Below are positions 50,392-61,377 of a stretch of 64,000 nucleotides of DNA, in pieces. The notes under the pieces are model-generated. The model did not search any database. It was given only the letters and a program-made list of their open reading frames with translations, and had not been told where the DNA came from. A program made the translations under genes and the position numbers. How positions within the stretch are numbered: the stretch's first letter is position 1; each line of letters starts with the position of its first letter. This stretch comes from a virus (lineage: Duplodnaviria; Heunggongvirae; Uroviricota; Caudoviricetes): the IMG/VR virus record IMGVR_UViG_3300028888_000043, positions 233,756 through 297,755 of that record, one strand, 5' to 3'.

Positions 50392-51111
50392 CTATGTCCA
50401 AAGTGCAAAGAAATATTTCCTGAACAAGTCAAGTGACTTATCTATGATTTCATCCTCATCCTTTGTCTTTATCTCATCAGACACCATCAATTCAAACCCT
50501 TTCAGCATGTCTTCAAGTATCTTCAACCACTCATCAAGTGATTTCATATCAGCGGGATGACATTTCATTTCCTTCACATCCTCTATGAATGCCTTGAGTC
50601 TTGGATAGACGAACCTTGCGATCGTACCGTCAAGATTCCAGGTCTCCGAGATGTCAAATCCCCTTTCCAGTCTCTGCTGTGTGTATGCCTCCCATCTGTC
50701 ATCATCCGGATCCACCAGGGAGAAGCAGACATTTGGAATACCATACGGGTCTCTTGCCTGGACATCTGGGTCAGTCCTGTCATATGAGTAATAGAACTTG
50801 GCCAGGTCATAGGAACGAACCCTGTCATAGTTCAAATCAACCACATACTGGTATTTGCCCATTGAAGGATTGAGTTCAACACCCGTATTGACCTCTTTGT
50901 AGAGGTCATAACTGTTTTCATCCTGATGATTGTGGATATGTGTCATATACAAATCTTTGAAAAACTTGATATATGACTTGTACTCAAAGAAGGTGTACTT
51001 CTTTTTCAGGTTGCACTCTTTGATAAGATTTTCATCCTTGATGGTCACTTTCACAATACCTCCATGGTTGAAGAACTCCAATGGGGTTAATTCATCTAAA
51101 ATTACTTCCAT
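50392..51111 (-). CDS. Hypothetical protein
   Basis: 239-aa ORF behind minus-strand TTTGTTATCTTT motif. Confidence 0.7.
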   Translation of the reverse strand: MEVILDELTPLEFFNHGGIVKVTIKDENLIKECNLKKKYTFFEYKSYIKFFKDLYMTHIHNHQDENSYDLYKEVNTGVELNPSMGKYQYVVDLNYDRVRSYDLAKFYYSYDRTDPDVQARDPYGIPNVCFSLVDPDDDRWEAYTQQRLERGFDISETWNLDGTIARFVYPRLKAFIEDVKEMKCHPADMKSLDEWLKILEDMLKGFELMVSDEIKTKDEDEIIDKSLDLFRKYFFALWT

Positions 51112-51176
51112 ATAGTTGATTTCTTATGAAATAAAGATAACAAAAATCCCGGATTTGTTATATTTAAGGTGCTATT

Positions 51177-52433
51177 ATGAAAGAGTGTAGATACATAGAA
51201 CTGTTTGCCGGTGTAGGTGGATTTCATGTCGGTCTTGACAGGGCAGACAAGGATTTCTTCAAGTGTGTGATGGCCAACCAGTGGGAACCTGGATCCAAAG
51301 ACCAGTTTGCAGCTGACATATACAGGAAGAGATTCCCTGATGACCTGTTGATAAATGATGATGTCAACAACATCAGTGGAAAGGATTATGAAGTAGATCT
51401 GCTTGTGGGTGGTTTTCCATGTCAAGATTACAGTGTTGCCAGGAACAAGTCCAAGTCATTTGGTATAGAAGGTAAGAAGGGTGTTCTCTGGTGGCAGGTC
51501 ATCAGAATCATCTGGGAGATGAAAGTGAAACCGAAGTATCTTCTGTTTGAGAATGTGGACAGGATGATAATCTCCCCTTCCAAGCAGAGAGGAAGGGATT
51601 TTGCTCTCATCTTACAGTCATTGATTAATCTTGGATATGACATAGAATGGAGAGTCATCAATGCTGCGGACTATGGAATGCCACAGAAAAGGAAAAGAAT
51701 CTTCCTTTTTGCGTTCCAAAATGGTAGTTTTGATGTGAAGAGTCCAGATTCCTGGTTGTATAAGGATGGTGTTCTTGCTAAAGCATTCCCTGTGAAAGAA
51801 GACCCAGAACTTGGTCTCTGGGGACTTGACCAGAGAGAGTTGAATTCAGACCTTGTATATCTCTCTGACCATTTCAATGAGAGAAACATCCTGGACCATC
51901 CATTCGAGAATGCCGGCGTGGTGATAGATGGTTATATTTCCACAGTAAAGGTCAAAACGGACTATTCTGGACCATTTATGACACTGGGTGGTGTTCTTGC
52001 CTATGGAGAGGATAGAAAACTCATTACAGAGGACTTTTACCTGTCTGATGAGGATGTGAAGAAGTGGGAGTATGCCAAGGGTCACAAATCATTCGAGAGA
52101 ACAAGTAAGGATGGTTATACCTACACTTACAATGAAGGCGCTATGGCATTCCCGGATTATCTGGATAAACCTGCCAGGACATTGATAACAAGTGAGGTCT
52201 CCACTACTCCGAACAGGTTCACCCATATCATAAGGGATCCAGAGAATGGGAGATTGAGAAGACTGATTCCACTGGAGTTGGAAAGGATACAGATGTTCCC
52301 AGATAACCATACAGAAGGAACTACTGACAAGAAAAGGGGATTTCTGATGGGTAATGCCCTGGTGTGTGGGATTGTCGAGAGGATTGGAATTGAATTGAAG
52401 AAAAGGATATATGAAGATAACCACATTGGATGA
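51177..52433 (+). CDS. dcm: Complete DNA cytosine-C5 methyltransferase, M.Sau3AI-like
   Basis: Motifs I ELFAGVGG, IV GFPCQD, VI ENV, VIII QKRKR, IX RRLIPLELERIQ, X MGNALV; variable region resembles the Sau3AI family from memory. Confidence 0.9.
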   Translation: MKECRYIELFAGVGGFHVGLDRADKDFFKCVMANQWEPGSKDQFAADIYRKRFPDDLLINDDVNNISGKDYEVDLLVGGFPCQDYSVARNKSKSFGIEGKKGVLWWQVIRIIWEMKVKPKYLLFENVDRMIISPSKQRGRDFALILQSLINLGYDIEWRVINAADYGMPQKRKRIFLFAFQNGSFDVKSPDSWLYKDGVLAKAFPVKEDPELGLWGLDQRELNSDLVYLSDHFNERNILDHPFENAGVVIDGYISTVKVKTDYSGPFMTLGGVLAYGEDRKLITEDFYLSDEDVKKWEYAKGHKSFERTSKDGYTYTYNEGAMAFPDYLDKPARTLITSEVSTTPNRFTHIIRDPENGRLRRLIPLELERIQMFPDNHTEGTTDKKRGFLMGNALVCGIVERIGIELKKRIYEDNHIG

Positions 52434-52944
52434 GATAATTGAGAGAGATGTTCCGGAAGAACTCTATTTCAAGAAGAAGGACTGGGAGAAAAGAAAGTAT
52501 CTCAGGACTACTCTTCCAATGATGTGTACCGTGAAAGGGGATGATGTCTATCTCTTTGTGGAAGGAGTCAAACCTCCACAGATATTGAAGCAGAAGAGAA
52601 CCGAGGATGAGAAACTGAGGAGACACAGGTTCGGTGACAAGGGGAAGAAGTTCGGAAAGGGAGTCTATGCTGAACCCACAGGTGACGGATATTCCAACAC
52701 CCTGACTACATTCTCTATGGATAATTATGTCTGGGACAGGAACTACAAGGTGAGAGAACTGACTGACAGGGAGGCATTCAGGTTGATGGATGTAGATCCG
52801 GAAGATGTTGATAAGATATTGGATGCTGTTCCTTCTAAATACTGCAAAAAATTGTCAGGCAACAGTATTGTGGTCAATGTGATGACAGAGATATTCAGGA
52901 ATTTATTTGGTGAAAGAACTAACCCAGAAATACCTTTATTTTAA
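52411..52944 (+). CDS. C5-MTase small subunit (TRD + motifs IX-X)
   Basis: SNTLTT, RELTDREAFRLM, GNSIVV; no motifs I-VIII. Confidence 0.8.
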   Translation: MKITTLDEIIERDVPEELYFKKKDWEKRKYLRTTLPMMCTVKGDDVYLFVEGVKPPQILKQKRTEDEKLRRHRFGDKGKKFGKGVYAEPTGDGYSNTLTTFSMDNYVWDRNYKVRELTDREAFRLMDVDPEDVDKILDAVPSKYCKKLSGNSIVVNVMTEIFRNLFGERTNPEIPLF

Positions 52945-52949
52945 GAATT

Positions 52950-53279
52950 ATGAGTATTTGGTGTGATATACACAGAAGAAGTAATGGTCTCCAGGAAAGG
53001 GAAGAAGACAAAAACAGATATATCAAACTTGATAAGATTGAAGAAATATTGAAATCTATGAAGGTTGGTACAAAGAAAGGTGAATATCCTCCGGTGTTTG
53101 CTTTGAATATTCTTGTTGAACATTTTGATGGTAATGTTGTATCATATTCAATAATGGCAGCATCAACTCAACATGCAGACGGAAGTAGAGATTTTTATTC
53201 AGAACCTGTTTTGAATTCATTTAAAGAAATAATGGATAACAGAGGGAATATTATTGAAATAACCAAGTTGTTTTTATGA
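52950..53279 (+). CDS. Hypothetical protein starting with the repeat tag of the 2098-5181 protein
   Basis: MSIWCDIHRRSNGLQEREED. Confidence 0.75.
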   Translation: MSIWCDIHRRSNGLQEREEDKNRYIKLDKIEEILKSMKVGTKKGEYPPVFALNILVEHFDGNVVSYSIMAASTQHADGSRDFYSEPVLNSFKEIMDNRGNIIEITKLFL

Positions 53280-53286
53280 GTATTAT

Positions 53287-53772
53287 ATGAAACATTTAGT
53301 AGTAATTGCAGAAAAAGAAGAATTTAAGTTGGTTGAGAAACTGGGGTATGATAATTATCCTATTCTCATCACTGGTGTGGGTGCATTGAATGTCATTGAT
53401 GCATTGAAAGACATACCGAAGGACACAAACCTGATAAACATAGGTTATGCAGGAAGTAAAGACCTTGAACCAGGGAAGTTCTACACAGTGAATATGGTGT
53501 CTCTGTATCATCCCAATGTGGATTATTTTGAACGTCAGTATGAACTTGGTTGGATTCCCTGGATGGTTGAGTCAGAGGATGATGAACCTATGATACCAGT
53601 GAAGTGTCTGACTGGGACTGATTTTGTGCTTGAATCAAATGTCAAAGGATGTGTCTTTGATATGGAATTAGCATATATCAAGGCACTTGGTTTTGAGAAT
53701 GTCATTGCTTATAAGTATGTGAGTGACAACCTGGATTTACAGGAATATAGAGAGAAGTTCAATGAGAAATGA
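53287..53772 (+). CDS. MTA/SAH nucleosidase-like (PNP_UDP_1 family) protein
   Basis: TGVG..N, INIGYAGS, TGTDFV, DME, KYVSDN. Confidence 0.75.
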   Translation: MKHLVVIAEKEEFKLVEKLGYDNYPILITGVGALNVIDALKDIPKDTNLINIGYAGSKDLEPGKFYTVNMVSLYHPNVDYFERQYELGWIPWMVESEDDEPMIPVKCLTGTDFVLESNVKGCVFDMELAYIKALGFENVIAYKYVSDNLDLQEYREKFNEK

Positions 53773-54100
53773 TGTCCATATAGTGAAGGTTGGACCTCAT
53801 CAGCAGGACACTGTGATGTACACTGATGGGGTCTGCCGCTGTATCTGTGTGGGCCATCACAACAACACCAACAGTTACCTGAAAATCCTGGACAATGGAA
53901 AAGTCAGGAAGATGACCACCAAGGAAATCGGGAGACTGATGGGTGTGGATGACAAGGACATAGACACTATGATGGGTGTCCTGGCTCCTGGATCAGTCAA
54001 TTCCTTGTTTGGGAACTCCATTGTGGTGGATGTTCTGGAAGGTGTATTCAGGAACTTGTTTTATGGGGAAGATAAACCAAAAGATATTAAATTGTTTTGA
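53762..54100 (+). CDS. C5-MTase small subunit (TRD + motifs IX-X)
   Basis: QQDTVMYTDGVCRCI, RKMTTKEIGRLMG, GNSIVV; ATG 53762. Confidence 0.8.
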   Translation: MRNDVHIVKVGPHQQDTVMYTDGVCRCICVGHHNNTNSYLKILDNGKVRKMTTKEIGRLMGVDDKDIDTMMGVLAPGSVNSLFGNSIVVDVLEGVFRNLFYGEDKPKDIKLF

Positions 54101-54101
54101 T

Positions 54102-54302
54102 ATGGGGATTAAATTGGAAGACTTTGCAAAAGCTGGTGTTGCTTCACCAAAAATCGGAGGAGTTAAGTTTATGAATGATGGTCATAAAGAGTTTGATTTC
54201 ATCAAGTATGAACATCCAAAGAAAGATTGGGGGAACATATTTCTCTATGCTTTGATATATTTTTGTTTGTTTGGTATTTTTTATTTGGTACAATTCATAT
54301 GA
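54102..54302 (+). CDS. Small membrane protein
   Basis: C-terminal hydrophobic helix; ATG just after previous stop. Confidence 0.55.
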   Translation: MGIKLEDFAKAGVASPKIGGVKFMNDGHKEFDFIKYEHPKKDWGNIFLYALIYFCLFGIFYLVQFI

Positions 54303-54529
54303 TACAGGAAAAGAAGATTTATAAAATGAAAGAACTGGAACAGTTCGTACATGACCACATCCAGCAGAAGATTAACAACAATGAACTTCATCTGACAGGA
54401 ATAAGTATGACAGGTGATACTAATATTTTCAAAAGGGAGTTTGAAATATATCAGAATGCCCTGTTGGAAGGTATAGTCAATGGTATCATTATGTGTGATG
54501 GTGAAGTTGAAGGCATTGAAACAGATTAG
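54299..54529 (+). CDS. Hypothetical protein
   Basis: ATGA overlap with previous gene. Confidence 0.55.
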   Translation: MIQEKKIYKMKELEQFVHDHIQQKINNNELHLTGISMTGDTNIFKREFEIYQNALLEGIVNGIIMCDGEVEGIETD

Positions 54530-54531
54530 AT

Positions 54532-54819
54532 ATGGGAAAGGGAAAACCAAGAACTGCTGTTCACAGGAGGGTGAACAGTATGTTAAAGAAATTCGGTAGC
54601 GAATGTGAATGGTGGGATGGAGGTTATCCTGAATGTATGCTACCATGGGACGGGAAGTGTTCTGGCAATCCGTTTGTCTGTAAGAAACTGTATATGCAGT
54701 ATCTTGCATCTTCAAAGAAGATTGACCAGAATGTTGTAGCAGAGTTTGAGAACCGTGAAAAGGATTCATTAAAAGAAAAATATCCAAACTATGACACCAG
54801 AAGAGAAATCAGTATTTGA
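54532..54819 (+). CDS. Hypothetical Cys-containing protein
   Basis: 95-aa ORF, tightly packed operon. Confidence 0.6.
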   Translation: MGKGKPRTAVHRRVNSMLKKFGSECEWWDGGYPECMLPWDGKCSGNPFVCKKLYMQYLASSKKIDQNVVAEFENREKDSLKEKYPNYDTRREISI

Positions 54820-55006
54820 CGAGTATGGTACTGCATATCCCTGTTGTGGGAACTGTGCCAACATCCGGGAGGCATGTTGGAAGTTGATGTGTAAATTGAA
54901 CTATGAATATAGGGAGTTCGGATCATTGAAATGTGTTTATTACAAGTTTAAGCAGAATGTACCTGTATTGGAAGAACTCATTGAACAGAGAGAATCATTA
55001 AATTAA
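54791..55006 (+). CDS. Small Cys-rich hypothetical protein
   Basis: CCGNC..C..C..C. Confidence 0.55.
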   Translation: MTPEEKSVFDEYGTAYPCCGNCANIREACWKLMCKLNYEYREFGSLKCVYYKFKQNVPVLEELIEQRESLN

Positions 55007-55012
55007 ACAATT

Positions 55013-55213
55013 ATGACACAGGAAGAACTTAGAAAATATCTCTGGGAGAAATGGAGTAATTATTCAAGGGGACTTTCCATCTCTTATTCTTTCAGGAAGA
55101 ACAAGGAACTGACTATAAAGGATGTGGAGGATGCCTTCGAGTCTGGGTTCTATGAATTCCAGCAGATTTGTTACAAGAACAATATCAAGATGGAAGACCT
55201 TAAATTGGAGTAA
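55013..55213 (+). CDS. Hypothetical protein
   Basis: 66-aa ORF in operon. Confidence 0.55.
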   Translation: MTQEELRKYLWEKWSNYSRGLSISYSFRKNKELTIKDVEDAFESGFYEFQQICYKNNIKMEDLKLE

Positions 55214-55231
55214 TTTTGTTATATTTAATAT

Positions 55232-55450
55232 ATGAAAAAGTACAAAATCAGAAAGTTGACACCAAGGGAGTGTTATAGATTAATGGGTGTGGAAGATACA
55301 GACACAGATAAATTACTTGGAACTGATTTGAAAGATTCAAATCATTATAAACTTGCAGGTAATTCTATTGTTGTGGATTGTATGGTTCATATGTTTGACA
55401 AGTTGTTCTTTAACAGGAATGAACCTAAGAAAAAAATTACATTATGGTAA
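55232..55450 (+). CDS. C5-MTase minimal subunit (motifs IX-X only)
   Basis: IRKLTPRECYRLMGV..YKLAGNSIVV; own TTTGTTATATTT promoter motif. Confidence 0.8.
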   Translation: MKKYKIRKLTPRECYRLMGVEDTDTDKLLGTDLKDSNHYKLAGNSIVVDCMVHMFDKLFFNRNEPKKKITLW

Positions 55451-55465
55451 AAAATAGGGATAGAA

Positions 55466-56524
55466 CTAAATTCTATCCCTTATTTGTTGTAAAATATCAT
55501 CTAATTTTGTTGAGAAGATTTCAATCCAATTCAGATTGTTTTTCTTTGCAATATCTCTCTTTTCAACATCTCTTATTGTCCAGTTTTCTATTGCATTTTG
55601 ATAGTATTTACTGTTTTTTGATTTTTCCTGCCAATTTAATAATGTCTTCTCATCATTTTCATCTGACAAATATGGGTGGAATCCATGTGTCCATGTTCCA
55701 TTAATTTCAAGGAATAAATCAGTTTGTGGAAAATAAAAATCACAAATGAAATTGTATCTATTTTTGTCTCTGTGATGCTGAATATAATTTATATGATTTT
55801 CATCTAACCAGTTTTTAAGTTTATTCTCAATGGATGATGATTTGAATGAATGGTTTATTTTCTTTGTTGTTATTTGTTTTGTGTACCAATCATCTTTAAT
55901 ATCTTTCATATGGTATTTATATTCATTTGTTTGAGAATATGTATTACAGTGATATTTTTCATTGCAAGTTTTCATCATTTTATCTGTATTCCTATATTCT
56001 TCATCTCCATATTTTTTCAATCTTGTTTCTTTTGATTTCTTCAATATTTCTTTGGAATCAAAACCAACACCACCATATCTTTTTGTTGCAGTTTTAACAG
56101 CTCTATTTTTTAGTTCTTTATTTTGTTGTGGAAATTCTACACCAAATTTATCTTTACAAGTTGATTTAAATAATTCCAATTTATGCGGATCTACATCTGC
56201 ACATTTTGTACAACAATGTTGATTATATCCACCACCTGTAAAATAGTTGAATTTACATCTATTTCCACATTTACAAATACCAAGTTCAAATTTTGTATCA
56301 TTCTGTAAGAAATGCCAAAGTAATTGAGAAAACTTCCAACCACTTGCAAATTCTGGAATAATCATCTGCAAAAAGTCATCATATAATTCTGGAAATCTAT
56401 ACTTAAAATTCCGTCTATGTGTTAAACAGAGTTTTGGATGAGATATTATGAAATGAAAAACATCATCCTTTGACATTTGAGACAGATTTATAGGAAAACC
56501 TATCTCATCTAATTTTTGAGACAT
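55466..56524 (-). mobile_element. Free-standing homing-endonuclease-like gene (Vsr/DUF559-type PD-(D/E)XK with KYG repeats)
   Basis: CDFYFP..LEING..HG; CKCG..CCTKC; repeats KFG/RYG/KYG; AT-rich, opposite strand, own late promoter; ATG 56524 preferred. Confidence 0.7.
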
Positions 56525-56657
56525 AAATATATTGAAAATTATTGTTTTTATAAGAGGACTTATAGTGAATTCCACAATTCACAAAAATGTAAGTCCTCTT
56601 ATTATATTTATGAAAGTTTGTTATATTTATTATGTTAAAGAAATATATTGGATTTTG

Positions 56658-56894
56658 ATGGATGATATAGTAACAAAAGATGGGATATTCAAATACAGAT
56701 GGGAATCAGAATTTCTTGGTAAAAAAGGATGTGATGTTTGCTTTTTAAAAGATGATGAATATTGTCCAAAAGAAAAATGTACAAAGGATGGGTGTTATGT
56801 TATAATGACACAACGTGAACAGCTTAATGAGAGGATACAAAAGTGGTTGGATGAAAAGAAGTTAAAGAAACAGCAAGAACTTGATAATAAATAG
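56658..56894 (+). CDS. Small hypothetical protein
   Basis: MDDIVTKDG..CDVC..C..C; after TTTGTTATATTT motif. Confidence 0.55.
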   Translation: MDDIVTKDGIFKYRWESEFLGKKGCDVCFLKDDEYCPKEKCTKDGCYVIMTQREQLNERIQKWLDEKKLKKQQELDNK

Positions 56895-56899
56895 GTTTT

Positions 56900-57646
56900 A
56901 TGGTAAAGAAATATACAAAAGAAAATCCATTGAGGGTGTTTACAGCATTCTCTGGTTATGATTCCCAGTGTCTTGCACTCAACAGACTGGGAATTACTTA
57001 TGATTTGGTGGGTTGGTCAGAGATTGACCCTGCCGCCATCAAGGCGCATGATGCTCTGTTCCCACAGTATGCTGACAGAAATTATGGTGACATCTCCAAG
57101 ATTGATTGGTCACAAGTTCCTGATTTTGATTTGTTTACTTATTCAAGTCCTTGTACTGACTTCAGTAATGCCGGTGCACAGGCAGGTGGTGAGGAAGGTT
57201 CTGGTACCAGGTCATCCCTTCTGTGGGAATGTAGGAAGACTATCCTTGCCAAGAAACCCAAATATCTGATGTTCGAGAATGTAAAGGCTCTCACATCAGA
57301 GAAGTTCTTCTATCTCTTTGACAAGTGGTGTAAGGAACTGGAGTCTTATGGTTATGCCAATTTCTACCAGATATTGAATGCCAAGAACTATGGGGTCCCA
57401 CAGTCAAGGGAAAGGATTTTTATGATTTCTATTTTGAAAACTGATGATGAACCTGATCCATACTATGAGTTCCCTAAACCTGTCAAATTGGAGAAGTGTA
57501 TAGAGGACATTCTTGAGGATGATGTTCCTGAGAAGTACTATATGAAACCGGAAGTAACTGAGAAGTACATTGAAATTATGAATCAGGAGTATCCGGATGA
57601 GGTTGGTGAGGACATTGATGTGGAGGATTACACTGGGTTATGGTAA
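56900..57646 (+). CDS. C5-MTase catalytic subunit (motifs I-VIII only)
   Basis: TAFSGYDSQ, SEID, GDISK, SSPCTDFS, ENVKAL, PQSRERIF, then stop with no TRD or motifs IX-X. Confidence 0.88.
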   Translation: MVKKYTKENPLRVFTAFSGYDSQCLALNRLGITYDLVGWSEIDPAAIKAHDALFPQYADRNYGDISKIDWSQVPDFDLFTYSSPCTDFSNAGAQAGGEEGSGTRSSLLWECRKTILAKKPKYLMFENVKALTSEKFFYLFDKWCKELESYGYANFYQILNAKNYGVPQSRERIFMISILKTDDEPDPYYEFPKPVKLEKCIEDILEDDVPEKYYMKPEVTEKYIEIMNQEYPDEVGEDIDVEDYTGLW

Positions 57647-57978
57647 GGAAGGCTATAAATACTTGTACTGACGGGACATGTAGGACAATAGTTTCCTGGT
57701 ATGCCAAGGGTGGCAGGAGTAATTTCGCTGCCTGGAATGGTACTGACAGATTTCTTATGACTGCTGTCCTGGAAGAATATGATGAAGAAGAACTTATGGA
57801 AAGAAAAGAAAGATTTATAGTTGACCATCAGGGTTATGGTAAGGCTGACCCCAGACCTGGATCTCATCTTGTTTTACCATCCAACAAAAAAACATGTACC
57901 ACCTTGACTACCTTCTGTGGTTTGAACAAGGCTGTTGTTGAAGTCTATGAGGATGATGAAAATTCAGACAGTGAGTAG
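57640..57978 (+). CDS. Stand-alone C5-MTase target-recognition-domain protein
   Basis: DGTCRTIVSWYAKG..TAVLE and KTCTTLTT..KAVVE, both TRD-like. Confidence 0.6.
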   Translation: MVRKAINTCTDGTCRTIVSWYAKGGRSNFAAWNGTDRFLMTAVLEEYDEEELMERKERFIVDHQGYGKADPRPGSHLVLPSNKKTCTTLTTFCGLNKAVVEVYEDDENSDSE

Positions 57979-57980
57979 TT

Positions 57981-58844
57981 ATGGAGAAGTTAAGTAATTT
58001 GAATGAGGCGAGAAGGGTGTTCATATATAATCATAAGACTATGCCCTTTGAATTTGCAGAAATTTGTAAAATGGATAAGTTCCAGACTAAAATTGCACAA
58101 AGGACAGGAAAGCCTTGGAGAAATTCTGTTGAACTAAACAAGTTCCTTAAAAATGATTATGCCGGTGAACTCCCAAAGAGTCTTTTGGAATTGGCCAGGA
58201 GGTTAAAGGAACCGGACTATATCTGTGATTTGTTCTATATGAGTGAAGATGGGTATAAGAACATGTACCCGGAAGAGTATGCCAATTTCTTTGAGAACAA
58301 ACCACAGTGGGAGAAGGAGAAGATATTCCAGGCCGCCGATTATGGTGCAAGGACATTGTTTGAGTTTGAGCAGGATGTGAAGGCCGGAAATTTGATGGAG
58401 GATATGATTGCCTACCATACAAAAGGTATCCTTTCTCCTAATGAGAATGCATCCGGTAGAGGTTCTGATGTACTTTCAACATCCTGTGACTTCATATTCA
58501 GAAGTCCCGATGACAGTATAGAGCAACCTGTCGAGTTGAAGACCAAGTGGGTTTACAAACTGAAGGACAAGGAGATTGTACAGATGAGAGGTACGATAGA
58601 CACAATCCTTAAAGAAAAGGGTATGGTCTTGGCCATATACATCAAAATGAACAAGGCGATACTGATTGATCCCATTGGGAAACATTATAATATGACACCA
58701 GGGAAGATGAAAAATGGGAAAGACTGTGTGAACATAGAGGTTGACAAGAATGATATTGTTGATTTCAAGTTTTGGAATAAAGAAGACCTCAAAAAAATGA
58801 TGCATATGATTTTAGACCAGCACAATGCAAGAGAAACCAAGTAG
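57981..58844 (+). CDS. Putative PD-(D/E)XK endonuclease
   Basis: GNLMED..SCDFIF..PVELKTK. Confidence 0.55.
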   Translation: MEKLSNLNEARRVFIYNHKTMPFEFAEICKMDKFQTKIAQRTGKPWRNSVELNKFLKNDYAGELPKSLLELARRLKEPDYICDLFYMSEDGYKNMYPEEYANFFENKPQWEKEKIFQAADYGARTLFEFEQDVKAGNLMEDMIAYHTKGILSPNENASGRGSDVLSTSCDFIFRSPDDSIEQPVELKTKWVYKLKDKEIVQMRGTIDTILKEKGMVLAIYIKMNKAILIDPIGKHYNMTPGKMKNGKDCVNIEVDKNDIVDFKFWNKEDLKKMMHMILDQHNARETK

Positions 58845-58888
58845 GTTTCTCTTTTTGTTATATTTAGGTATATAAAATTATTGATATT

Positions 58889-59155
58889 ATGGATGATAAC
58901 AAGTTGGTAATCCTTATACCAAGCAGTTCCCATATAGAGGAGTTGAAGCAGAAGGGGATAGATATTGAGACCGAACTGGCAAGGGTTGTCTTTGACAATC
59001 TCAATCTCATCAAGCAGGGACAGAATCCAAAGACATTGGGTATCAGTGTGACCAGGGAACAGATGAATGACCTGGCCAAGTATGGTATTGATGGACCTGG
59101 ATACATCTCCGCTACCTTCAAGAAGGAACTGCATGAGAGACTGGTGAAAAAGTGA
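58889..59155 (+). CDS. Small protein similar to a segment of the major capsid protein
   Basis: VTREQMNDLAKYGID vs MCP ITREQIQDLKAYGID. Confidence 0.7.
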   Translation: MDDNKLVILIPSSSHIEELKQKGIDIETELARVVFDNLNLIKQGQNPKTLGISVTREQMNDLAKYGIDGPGYISATFKKELHERLVKK

Positions 59156-59955: not shown

Positions 59956-61377
59956 ATGAGTGATGTTGTAAAAGACAATGGCAGAATCTATACTCCGGCA
60001 AACATCGTGAAGATGATGCTGGATTATGCTGGTTATGTCCCTGGTCCCTGGATATGGAAGAAGCATGTCATCGACAACAGTTGCGGTGACGGGCAGATTT
60101 TGTGTGAGGTGGTCAGGAGATACATCACTTCATTTTCCAATCCGGGTGACTGGGAACTCCGGGACCAGTTGAAGGAATACATCCATGGTATAGAACTGGA
60201 TGAGACTGAATGTAATAAGTGTAAGGAGAACCTGAACAGGATTCTTGATGAATATTATATAGAGAGAATTGACTGGGACATCAGGTGTGGGAATTCCCTC
60301 ACTTTCAGGGATGAGTTCAGGGGGAAGATGGACTATGTGTTTGGTAATCCCCCTTATGTGAGGACAAAGAACATCAAGAAGTCTGATGATGATTACAAGA
60401 TATTGAGATGGTATGATTTTTCATCGACAGGTATGTCAGATCTCTACCTGGCATTCTATGAGCTTGGACTTGATATGAGGAATTCCGGAGGTATCCTGTG
60501 TTATATCGCACCCAGTTCCTGGACCAACAGTGTTTCCGGGAAAGTGATGAGATTCCATATCTCTGAGACAAGGGAATTGGCAGCAGTCATTGATTTCGGC
60601 CATTATCAGGTTTTTGACAATGCCACCACCTATGTGATGATAACCCTGTTTGACAACCATCCGCACAAGTACATCAGGTATGACAGGTATGAAGGGGAAT
60701 TGAAACAGGATTCTTTATTGTCCTATGAGGATGTGTTCATTGATGACAAGATGTATTTTGCATCCAAGGATGAGTGCGATGTATTGAAAATGGTGATGAA
60801 TACAAGTAAGAAAAAGATAGAAGTGAAGAATGGATATGCCACCTTGGCAGATGACATCTTCATTGACAATCTGCCTGATTTCAAGAATTACACCATTGAT
60901 GTGGTCAAGGCATCCACAGGACAGTGGAAGAAGTGTCTGTTCCCTTATGACAAGGATTTGAACCTCATCCCTATGAATGTGATAGAAAAGGTTAATCCGG
61001 AAGTATATGACTATTTTGTGCGGAATTATACCACATTGGATGCAAGGACTTATGATTCCAAGGGAAAGGAAGACACCTGGCATTCCATCGGAAGGAGTCA
61101 GGGATTGAAGGACACCTTTGTGAACAAGGTTTCTGTCAACAATCTTGTCAAGACTACTGATGATTTGAAACTGGTGGATGTTCCTTCTGGAAAGGGAGTC
61201 TATGGCGGACTTTACATCAAGACAGAAATGTCTGCGGATGAAATCAGGAATCTGCTTGCGAACGATGAGTTCGTCAGTTATGTGAAGACATTGAGGAAGT
61301 ACAAGAGCGGAGGTTATTATACCTTCTCATCAAAGGATTTGGAAAAGTATTTAAATTACAAGATGTATGGTGATTAA
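59956..61377 (+). CDS. N6-adenine DNA methyltransferase (Eco57I/TaqI-like gamma class)
   Basis: IYTP, DNSCGDG, GIELD, GNPPY, DLYLAF. Confidence 0.88.
   Translation: MSDVVKDNGRIYTPANIVKMMLDYAGYVPGPWIWKKHVIDNSCGDGQILCEVVRRYITSFSNPGDWELRDQLKEYIHGIELDETECNKCKENLNRILDEYYIERIDWDIRCGNSLTFRDEFRGKMDYVFGNPPYVRTKNIKKSDDDYKILRWYDFSSTGMSDLYLAFYELGLDMRNSGGILCYIAPSSWTNSVSGKVMRFHISETRELAAVIDFGHYQVFDNATTYVMITLFDNHPHKYIRYDRYEGELKQDSLLSYEDVFIDDKMYFASKDECDVLKMVMNTSKKKIEVKNGYATLADDIFIDNLPDFKNYTIDVVKASTGQWKKCLFPYDKDLNLIPMNVIEKVNPEVYDYFVRNYTTLDARTYDSKGKEDTWHSIGRSQGLKDTFVNKVSVNNLVKTTDDLKLVDVPSGKGVYGGLYIKTEMSADEIRNLLANDEFVSYVKTLRKYKSGGYYTFSSKDLEKYLNYKMYGD

Follow-up and report, generated by a model that had tools for sequence, protein, structure and literature searches.

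We analyzed a 64,000-nucleotide stretch of phage DNA (referred to here as the window; bases 233756 to 297755 of the 411.6-kb IMG/VR record IMGVR_UViG_3300028888_000043, Caudoviricetes; completeness estimate, 94%) that carries an island of genes for cytosine-5 DNA methyltransferases (C5-MTases). The island probably encodes a multispecific C5-MTase that has been taken apart, with one catalytic core serving several specificity sets and methylation placed at multiple sites. Within this reading, a predicted three-chain enzyme is well supported. It would consist of the core alpha1 (motifs I to VIII), the short closing chain betaC (motifs IX and X; IX-X), and a chain of two target recognition domain (TRD) units (the TRD chain), and it rests on the coupling of the three genes in relatives and on one-chain fusions of these modules (L016, L023, and P0058). 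Two further chains, betaA and betaB, which combine a TRD with IX-X, likely share the alpha1 core. Their proposed role in closing a core is suggested by the surplus of closing chains, their family membership, their synteny in L017 and L021, and purifying selection on motifs known only from methyltransferases.

The window genes read normally under translation table 11. Positions 51000 to 59000 had no match in the GenBank phage collection (megablast), and all relatives described here were drawn from IMG/VR and metagenome proteins; an IMG/VR search with alpha1 as the query returned 17 loci. TRD units were placed by phmmer within 120 family proteins (P numbers; referred to here as the core family). 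Ratios of nonsynonymous to synonymous substitution rates (dN/dS) were calculated by the Nei-Gojobori method.

Candidate parts of the split enzyme

A first-pass annotation, made from the sequence alone, had described a split C5-MTase whose catalytic chain carries motifs I to VIII and then stops, with IX-X located on three small open reading frames (ORFs). The PF00145 positions of the four proteins confirm this division (Table 1). By phmmer, alpha1 aligned to residues 12 to 204 of M.HhaI (327 residues). Of the motifs that mark the large domain of C5 DNA methyltransferases (PF00145), namely I (FxGxG), IV (PC), VI (ENV), and VIII (QxRxR), the last three are legible in alpha1, and motif I is a variant (see below). 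The polypeptide ends after the helices that follow motif VIII, and IX-X is carried not by it but by betaA, betaB, and betaC.

These three closing chains group with the sequence family of alpha1 and of a second core, alpha2, which lies outside the window together with its closing chain, beta2; they do not group with the neighboring intact Dcm-type C5-MTase. The IX-X parts of the four beta chains (betaA, betaB, betaC, and beta2) are 42 to 47% identical to one another. The C-terminal tail of betaA, betaB, and betaC is common to one-chain relatives and is absent from beta2. The betaB frame is open from position 53723, and its orthologues begin at the ATG at 53762. betaA repeats about 30 residues of the post-motif-VIII segment of alpha1; this echo at its start appears to reflect ancestry from a normal-order enzyme and not a special docking element.

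The TRD chain had no Pfam match, and its profile had no match among PDB sequences at E values up to 10. It had been annotated as two TRD-like units and nothing else, and unit 1 does match variable-region modules of one-chain relatives (phmmer E values of 1e-5 to 4e-3 among the 120 proteins); the weaker match of unit 2 is considered below. Homologues of the TRD chain among 1.8 billion representative proteins formed 15 clusters, all of ≤113 aa and several spanning one half only. No fused form was found in that search, and fusions surfaced only with targeted phmmer inside the core family. Given these half-length homologues and the presence of units 1 and 2 as separate ORFs in L017 and L021, the TRD chain likely consists of two separable units.

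The genes of the array are ordered as follows: intact Dcm, betaA, 161-aa ORF, betaB, 66-aa ORF, betaC, alpha1, and TRD chain. The full array recurs in L008/L018, L009, L010, and L017, with partial arrays in L021/L024 and L030. Every copy of the small ORFs is intact in the related huge-phage contigs L008, L009, L010, L017, and L021. Measured against these contigs (dS of about 0.4 up to saturation), dN/dS was 0.04 to 0.12 for betaA, 0.06 to 0.20 for betaB, 0.08 to 0.30 for betaC, 0.07 to 0.17 for the TRD chain, and about 0.1 for alpha1. The conservation and dN/dS check that had been proposed with the first-pass annotation was thus run. Given the intact copies and dN/dS values of 0.04 to 0.30, the small ORFs are not neutrally evolving fragments, and they appear to be genes under purifying selection, not debris. 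Two of the arrays are compact: L017 (intact Dcm / betaA / betaB / TRD unit 1 / betaC / alpha1 / TRD unit 2 / nuclease-like gene) and L021 (betaA / betaC / alpha1 / unit 2, with gaps of ≤18 nt). These compact arrays indicate that betaA travels with alpha1 and not with the intact Dcm.

Coupling, fused relatives, and the second core

In L008, L010, L017, and L021, the stop codon of betaC overlaps the start codon of alpha1 as TTATGGTAA or TTATGGTAG, and the same type of overlap joins the stop of alpha1 to the start of the next gene. betaC, alpha1, and the TRD chain are thereby predicted to be translationally coupled in relatives. The ancestral unit, as read from this gene order, is betaC / alpha1 / TRD chain (i.e., IX-X, I to VIII, TRD), which is the order of a circularly permuted C5-MTase. 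The permutation in the window is one of gene order only, the parts being separate polypeptides.

The same modules were found in single chains. L016:7680-8678 (332 aa) is one chain of the type TRD-IX-X-I-VIII, with a betaB-like TRD and IX-X ahead of an alpha1-like core (58% identical), and L023:7815-8678 (287 aa) is one chain of the type IX-X-I-VIII; in both loci, a separate two-unit TRD chain follows the fused gene. A protein search with the L016 chain returned many permuted chains of about 330 to 340 aa, together with normal-order relatives of 440, 506, and 578 aa (core identity, 67 to 70%) that have several tandem TRD-like units. Within the core family, P0001 to P0072 are permuted one-chain enzymes with IX-X before I to VIII, and the one-chain proteins P0084, P0117, and P0120 show several TRD-like units. 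The tandem units (two to four in one chain among alpha1 relatives) suggest that cores of the alpha1 family serve several TRDs, and they fit the comparison, made in the first-pass annotation, with the multispecific methyltransferases of Bacillus phages SPR and phi3T.

Targeted phmmer located unit 1 of the TRD chain at the C-terminal end of P0058, a single chain of the type TRD-IX-X-I-VIII-TRD; Pfam reads this C-terminal unit as a continuation of the methyltransferase profile, to position 249. By the same method, a unit-1-like TRD was found adjoining motif IX in the normal-order proteins P0077, P0080, and P0106 and at the N terminus of the permuted protein P0034. The betaA TRD matches the TRD that comes last in one-chain enzymes with several TRDs, e.g., P0138 (42 to 44% identity over 73 to 75% of betaA). 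In an AlphaFold2 (AF2) model of P0058, the core was confident, with M.HhaI, M.MpeI, and M.HaeIII as the best PDB matches. The coupling in relatives and the one-chain fusions support the three-chain form, which had first been offered as a possible variant of a two-chain enzyme.

The first-pass annotation counted one catalytic subunit and so overlooked both alpha2 and the intact Dcm (51177 to 52433). alpha2 and beta2 are paired in normal order (G000:C1:332487-333676). In G002, a 121-aa ORF sits between them (L111:661-2202, minus strand). A fused alpha2-beta2 gene in that genome, considered on account of a 515-aa open frame, was ruled out, the two being separate genes with the 121-aa ORF between them. 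Both alpha/beta sets are kept in G002 and in G003, a 94%-complete genome that holds locus L010. In our census, the genome under study has one intact Dcm-type gene, alpha1 and alpha2 as its two free cores, and four IX-X chains that are likewise free, with no additional core at a tblastn E value of <1; the census of G003 was identical (one intact enzyme, two cores, and four IX-X chains). Closing chains are thus twice as numerous as free cores in both genomes. The intact Dcm belongs to a different subfamily (approximately 33% identical to alpha1) and is the sole gene of the island with IX-X and I to VIII in one polypeptide. We treat it as context, outside the split enzyme.

Promoter-like motif, inserted cassette, and neighboring genes

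The features discussed here are listed in Table 1. The intact Dcm, the alpha2/beta2 pair, the endonuclease cassette, the permuted gene order, and the nuclease-like gene are additions to the first-pass annotation.

Table 1. Coordinates of methyltransferase genes, promoter-like motifs, and neighboring genes (window positions unless a locus is named)
Feature	Position	Strand	Description
TTGTTATATTT copies	7723, 41245, 45812, 51155, 55216, 56618, 58855	+	Four (51155, 55216, 56618, 58855) in the methyltransferase island
Promoter-like TTGTTATATTT	51155..51165	+	12 nt upstream of the intact Dcm ATG
Intact one-chain Dcm-type C5-MTase	51177..52433	+	418 aa; PF00145 2-323 of 324, E 4e-60
betaA	52411..52944	+	177 aa; PF00145 198-322; post-motif-VIII segment, TRD, IX-X, tail ending LF
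161-aa ORF	53287..53772	+	Overlaps betaB start; orthologues in L008-L010, dN/dS 0.14-0.28
betaB	53762..54100	+	112 aa; PF00145 260-322; TRD, IX-X, tail ending LF
Promoter-like TTGTTATATTT	55216..55226	+	Ahead of betaC
betaC	55232..55450	+	72 aa; PF00145 271-322, E 8e-8; IX-X only
Homing-endonuclease-like gene	55466..56575	-	369 aa; DUF7487 E 3e-11; phrog_3339 E 2e-10; phrog_559 (HNH endonuclease)
Promoter-like TTGTTATATTT	56618..56628	+	Within cassette, ahead of small ORF and alpha1
Small ORF	56664..56894	+	76 aa; just upstream of alpha1; L009 has a 74% identical homologue in this position
alpha1	56900..57646	+	248 aa; PF00145 6-219 of 324, E 4e-50; motifs I-VIII; no TRD, no IX-X
TRD chain	57640..57978	+	Two TRD units, residues 1-52 and 53-112; no IX-X; start overlaps alpha1 stop
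PD-(D/E)XK nuclease-like gene	57981..58844	+	287 aa; ends the alpha1 operon, 2-nt gap after TRD chain
alpha2	L003:1462-2190		About 41 kb downstream, outside the window; I-VIII core, 59% identical to alpha1 over I-VIII
beta2	L003:2187-2654		Overlaps alpha2 by ATGA; pair in normal order

The motif TTGTTATATTT occurs seven times on the plus strand of the window (0.08 copies expected), and the copy ahead of betaC had been annotated as that gene's own promoter motif. The copies inspected lie 5 to 45 nt ahead of gene starts; the copy at 58855 comes after the nuclease-like gene. We consider TTGTTATATTT to be probably a phage promoter element, and its presence ahead of the intact Dcm, betaC, and the alpha1 unit suggests that the parts are co-expressed. 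Phase variation of the TRD genes was ruled out because homopolymer and repeat tracts were absent: positions 51000 to 59000 contained no G run or C run of ≥6 nt and no significant tandem repeat, and the whole window contained no G run or C run of ≥7 nt.

The betaC/alpha1 stop-start overlap is the exact insertion site of a 1449-bp cassette (55451 to 56899). The cassette comprises the endonuclease gene, the 76-aa ORF, and one TTGTTATATTT copy, and it is flanked by the ATGGTAAA start, which is retained at 55444 and duplicated at 56900. No homologue of the homing-endonuclease-like gene was found in any of L008 to L024. The 1.45-kb gap between betaC and alpha1 thus reads as an insertion specific to this genome. 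The small ORF within the cassette had no family match; L009 has a different 238-aa gene plus a homologue of this small ORF at the corresponding spot. The 161-aa ORF, for which no Pfam, PHROG, or PDB sequence match was found, is missing from the compact array of L017.

Further variation was observed around the alpha1 genes and intact Dcm genes of relatives. A 133-aa ORF that is not TRD-like uses the overlapping start after alpha1 in two contigs (L009:8732-9133 and L010:8732-9133), the TRD chain being one gene further down. In-frame inteins (Intein_splicing, Hint, and LAGLIDADG; approximately 300 to 370 aa) interrupt the methyltransferase genes of relatives at the catalytic PC motif, i.e., alpha1 in L017:6666-8477 and L021:6840-8489 and the intact Dcm in L009:1601-3970. 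An intein is also probable in G003, where alpha2 (G003:C1:173901-174308) lies within a 616-aa open frame. The window copies of alpha1 and the intact Dcm are intein free. A frameshift fusion of the intact Dcm and betaA was considered and ruled out because other ORFs separate the two in L008 to L010.

More distant relatives were found with betaB on IMG/VR contigs of 30 to 70 kb (L037 to L110). Core and IX-X lie in one frame at 15 of these loci and in different stop-free frames at 50 (13 adjacent and 37 separated by approximately 85 to 380 nt). The separate frames point either to split forms being common among smaller gut phages or to stop recoding at some of the loci.

Regarding the C-terminal tails, 34 of 98 normal-order one-chain relatives (e.g., P0084, P0117, P0120, and P0080) terminate in QL[S/D/N][L/I]F, which we take to be the bacterial beta-clamp-binding pentapeptide. 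In every orthologue, betaA (52920 to 52944) and betaB (54076 to 54100) terminate in LF; betaC (55426 to 55450) and alpha1 end in LW, an ending that is also dictated by the ATGGTA start with which the following gene overlaps them. A motif I strand remnant was ruled out as the source of the L(F/W) tail of the beta chains, given that normal-order one-chain relatives end alike. Clamp gene profiles PF00712 (DnaN) and PF02916 (gp45) had no match in this genome, PF02916 also being blank on the control.

The alpha1 operon ends with a PD-(D/E)XK nuclease-like gene, which possibly encodes a restriction-like nuclease carried by the phage. PD-(D/E)XK nucleases have a D...(D/E)xK catalytic motif on an alpha-beta-beta-beta-alpha-beta core; candidates for this motif are D170 and E185-x-K187, which do not vary among 23 homologues. 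The AF2 model of the protein (predicted local distance difference test [pLDDT] score, 89) matched Hjc (Z score, 7.6), RecU (7.0), and R.NhoI (6.5), followed by I-Ssp6803I, R.SwaI, and DpnI, over residues of approximately 133 to 287; these scores are middling (Z scores, 4.9 to 7.6; Foldseek E value, about 3e-3). Language-model (atlas) neighbors of the protein were named restriction endonuclease (0.90). Diverged homologues (23 to 54% identity) occupy the same position in L008, L009, L010, and L017, with identity down to 27% between genomes whose TRD chains keep 82%. An Eco57I/N6_Mtase-type adenine methyltransferase gene (59956 to 61377; PF07669 E value, 2e-24) lies 1.1 kb downstream, so that the island joins 5-methylcytosine (m5C) enzymes with a probable N6-methyladenine (m6A) enzyme.

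Proposed mechanism, alternatives, and known systems

In the structures of M.HhaI and M.HaeIII, motifs I to VIII and the motif X helix form the catalytic domain, and the TRD and motif IX form a small DNA-reading domain (PMC3404938, PMC5944983). Detached N- and C-terminal C5-MTase fragments, including overlapping ones, reassemble into active enzyme (PMC3404938), and engineered permuted M.MpeI and M.SssI that were split after motif VIII show complementation (PMC5944983). In the mechanism that we propose, alpha1 alone would be inactive, being without the motif X helix needed to complete the large domain and without motif IX and the DNA-reading small domain. alpha1 would supply S-adenosylmethionine (AdoMet) binding, the PC motif with its catalytic Cys, ENV, and QxRxR; betaC would supply IX-X; and the two-unit TRD chain would supply DNA recognition, possibly for two targets. 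betaA and betaB (TRD and IX-X, coreless) would close alpha1 in turn, and perhaps alpha2 too. With the core pool divided among three or four specificity sets, the phage DNA would be methylated at several different sequences and the genome would be protected from host restriction and possibly also from the nuclease-like protein encoded at the operon end. Multispecificity methylation against host restriction, as the first-pass annotation had proposed, is the simplest purpose to suppose; it may not be the sole one, given the conserved PD-(D/E)XK nuclease-like gene that ends the alpha1 operon.

The alternatives differ mainly in what they assign to betaA and betaB. That the small ORFs are functionless, decaying remnants of methyltransferase genes broken by homing endonucleases or inteins seems very improbable to us. 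A homing-endonuclease cassette does lie within the locus, and inteins interrupt the same genes in relatives; however, at least six diverged contigs preserve every piece intact, at dN/dS values far below 1 and with nearly saturated synonymous sites. Moreover, the inteins keep the reading frame, and the cassette is intergenic with its own promoter-like motif. It is also unlikely that the enzymes are restricted to betaC + alpha1 + TRD chain and alpha2 + beta2, with betaA and betaB retained in other roles, e.g., as small DNA-binding proteins for site masking, as regulators, or as competitors that reduce the activity of the core. Conservation of motif IX and of the GNS(I/V) residues of motif X in betaA and betaB (dN/dS, 0.04 to 0.2) argues otherwise, as these motifs are known only within the methyltransferase fold, and so do the tight packing of both genes with alpha1 in L017 and L021 and the fusion of betaB-like and betaA-like modules to cores in relatives. 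What speaks for this alternative is that betaA and betaB have no adjacent core in most relatives, with other genes lying between them and alpha1, and that betaA duplicates a segment already present on alpha1. No more probable is the alternative in which betaA, betaB, or both close alpha2, or serve both cores unselectively in a system of two cores by four closing chains. The similarity of alpha1 and alpha2 over motifs I to VIII, the mutual similarity of the four IX-X parts, and the conservation of both pairs in G002 and G003 would all suit such exchange. Against it, alpha2 is coupled to beta2 (by the ATGA overlap here, with one inserted ORF in G002), beta2 has no counterpart of the tail of betaA, betaB, and betaC, and these three cluster with alpha1 at a distance of about 41 kb from alpha2.

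A further explanation concerns the operon as a whole and is compatible with a split enzyme. The betaC-alpha1-TRD set could be the modification half of a phage-borne restriction-modification (R-M)-like module in which the 57981-58844 product attacks host or rival-phage DNA and methylation marks the DNA of the phage itself. We regard this as doubtful, although less so than the alternatives for betaA and betaB. The gene, with its invariant D...ExK residues, directly follows the TRD chain here and is diverged in L008, L009, L010, and L017, and the fold and language-model neighbors of its product are nucleases and restriction enzymes. The fold scores are nevertheless middling (Z scores up to 7.6), and Holliday-junction resolvases match as well as restriction enzymes do. 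The 27% identity of the nuclease versus 82% for the TRD chain is unexpected for matched specificities, and some top fold matches (DpnI and NhoI) are methyl dependent, which would imply the opposite logic.

Several observations weigh against the shared-core arrangement. betaA or betaB could pair with alpha2, beside or instead of alpha1. Motif I of alpha1 (56948 to 56965) reads G-Y-D and not the usual G-x-G; this variant is kept in alpha1, alpha2, their orthologues, and P0070, other family members having G-Y-G. betaA resembles the detached end of a normal-order gene and not a tailored partner. The match of TRD unit 2 to P0120 is weak (hhalign E value, 0.025, plus a short TL-type motif), and both TRDs in the P0058 model have pLDDT scores below 40, which makes the model uninformative on how a free TRD would dock. 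Finally, the census is based on two genomes, each 94% complete and neither closed. Taking the arrangement of one core and several specificity sets further, we tentatively propose a C5-MTase with the logic of a Type I system, a version that we hold less firmly than the arrangement itself. One nonspecific core would be served by an exchangeable TRD protein plus IX-X piece and by two competing TRD+IX-X chains, yielding at least three methylated motifs; the nuclease of the operon may make this an R-M weapon, and the shared tails may tether the chains to the sliding clamp.

M.AquI is a natural two-chain C5-MTase (Karreman & de Waard 1990; Pinarbasi et al. 2002, via PMC3404938). It resembles the system described here in having a I-to-VIII chain and a second chain that carries IX-X along with some of the variable region, encoded by adjacent, overlapping genes. 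This is exactly the layout of alpha2/beta2 but not that of the alpha1 set, in which the gene of the closing chain precedes that of the core, the overlapping gene downstream encodes TRD units alone, and the TRD is on a third chain; the alpha1 set also has three IX-X chains, two of them coreless TRD+IX-X chains, whereas M.AquI has one alpha and one beta chain in a bacterial R-M system. Circularly permuted C5-MTases (M.BssHII, M.Alw26I, M2.Eco31I, M.Esp3I, and M2.BsaI) have IX-X before I to VIII, and those described from nature consist of one chain each, usually arranged as TRD-IX-X-I-VIII (PMC5944983). The order is the same in the window, but the parts are on several polypeptides; the one-chain layout of the M.BssHII type is found in L016, L023, and P0001 to P0072. 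Complementation has been engineered in M.BspRI/M.BsuRI, M.HhaI, and M.SssI (PMC3404938) and in split permuted M.MpeI/M.SssI (PMC5944983). The L023 layout (an IX-X-I-VIII chain plus a TRD chain) is a natural counterpart of this permuted-and-split design. The engineered split methyltransferases, in contrast, are laboratory constructs with one specificity and no competing specificity chains.

The multispecific C5-MTases of Bacillus phages (M.SPRI, M.Phi3TI, M.Rho11sI, and M.H2I; Trautner laboratory) have tandem TRDs between motifs VIII and IX and a single IX-X in one polypeptide. The likeness to these enzymes lies in the phage origin, in one core that here too would serve several TRDs, and in the resemblance of the betaA TRD to the last TRD of such multi-TRD enzymes; the difference is that the TRDs here are not in tandem in one chain but on four separate chains, two of which have their own IX-X. 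In Type I R-M systems, HsdM takes its specificity from an exchangeable HsdS in an M2S1 assembly that produces m6A or N4-methylcytosine (m4C). The likeness to Type I systems is one of logic only: their specificity subunit has an unrelated fold, the chemistry and assembly differ, and the two are not of the same family. The alpha1 system, as its genes read, combines the known split, permuted, and multispecific kinds of C5-MTase.

To our knowledge, the natural C5-MTases on record are one-chain enzymes apart from two heterodimers, a few being permuted, and the known route to several specificities is that of tandem TRDs in one chain. In the literature that we covered, with subscription journals largely and REBASE wholly outside its scope, no C5-MTase was described in which a single core is accompanied by several closing chains or TRD chains. 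We also know of no structure in which the alternative TRDs of a multispecific enzyme are docked on one core, and the present system bears on how such enzymes dock alternative TRDs on a single core. If the proposed arrangement is true, the phage would be a source of existing parts for programmable or split methyltransferases, which engineers have hitherto built by hand (PMC3404938, PMC5944983). A free DNA-reading module and closing pieces that outnumber the cores would then represent a new mode of construction for the C5-MTase class, and huge phages would be able to cover many host restriction systems at a small coding cost.

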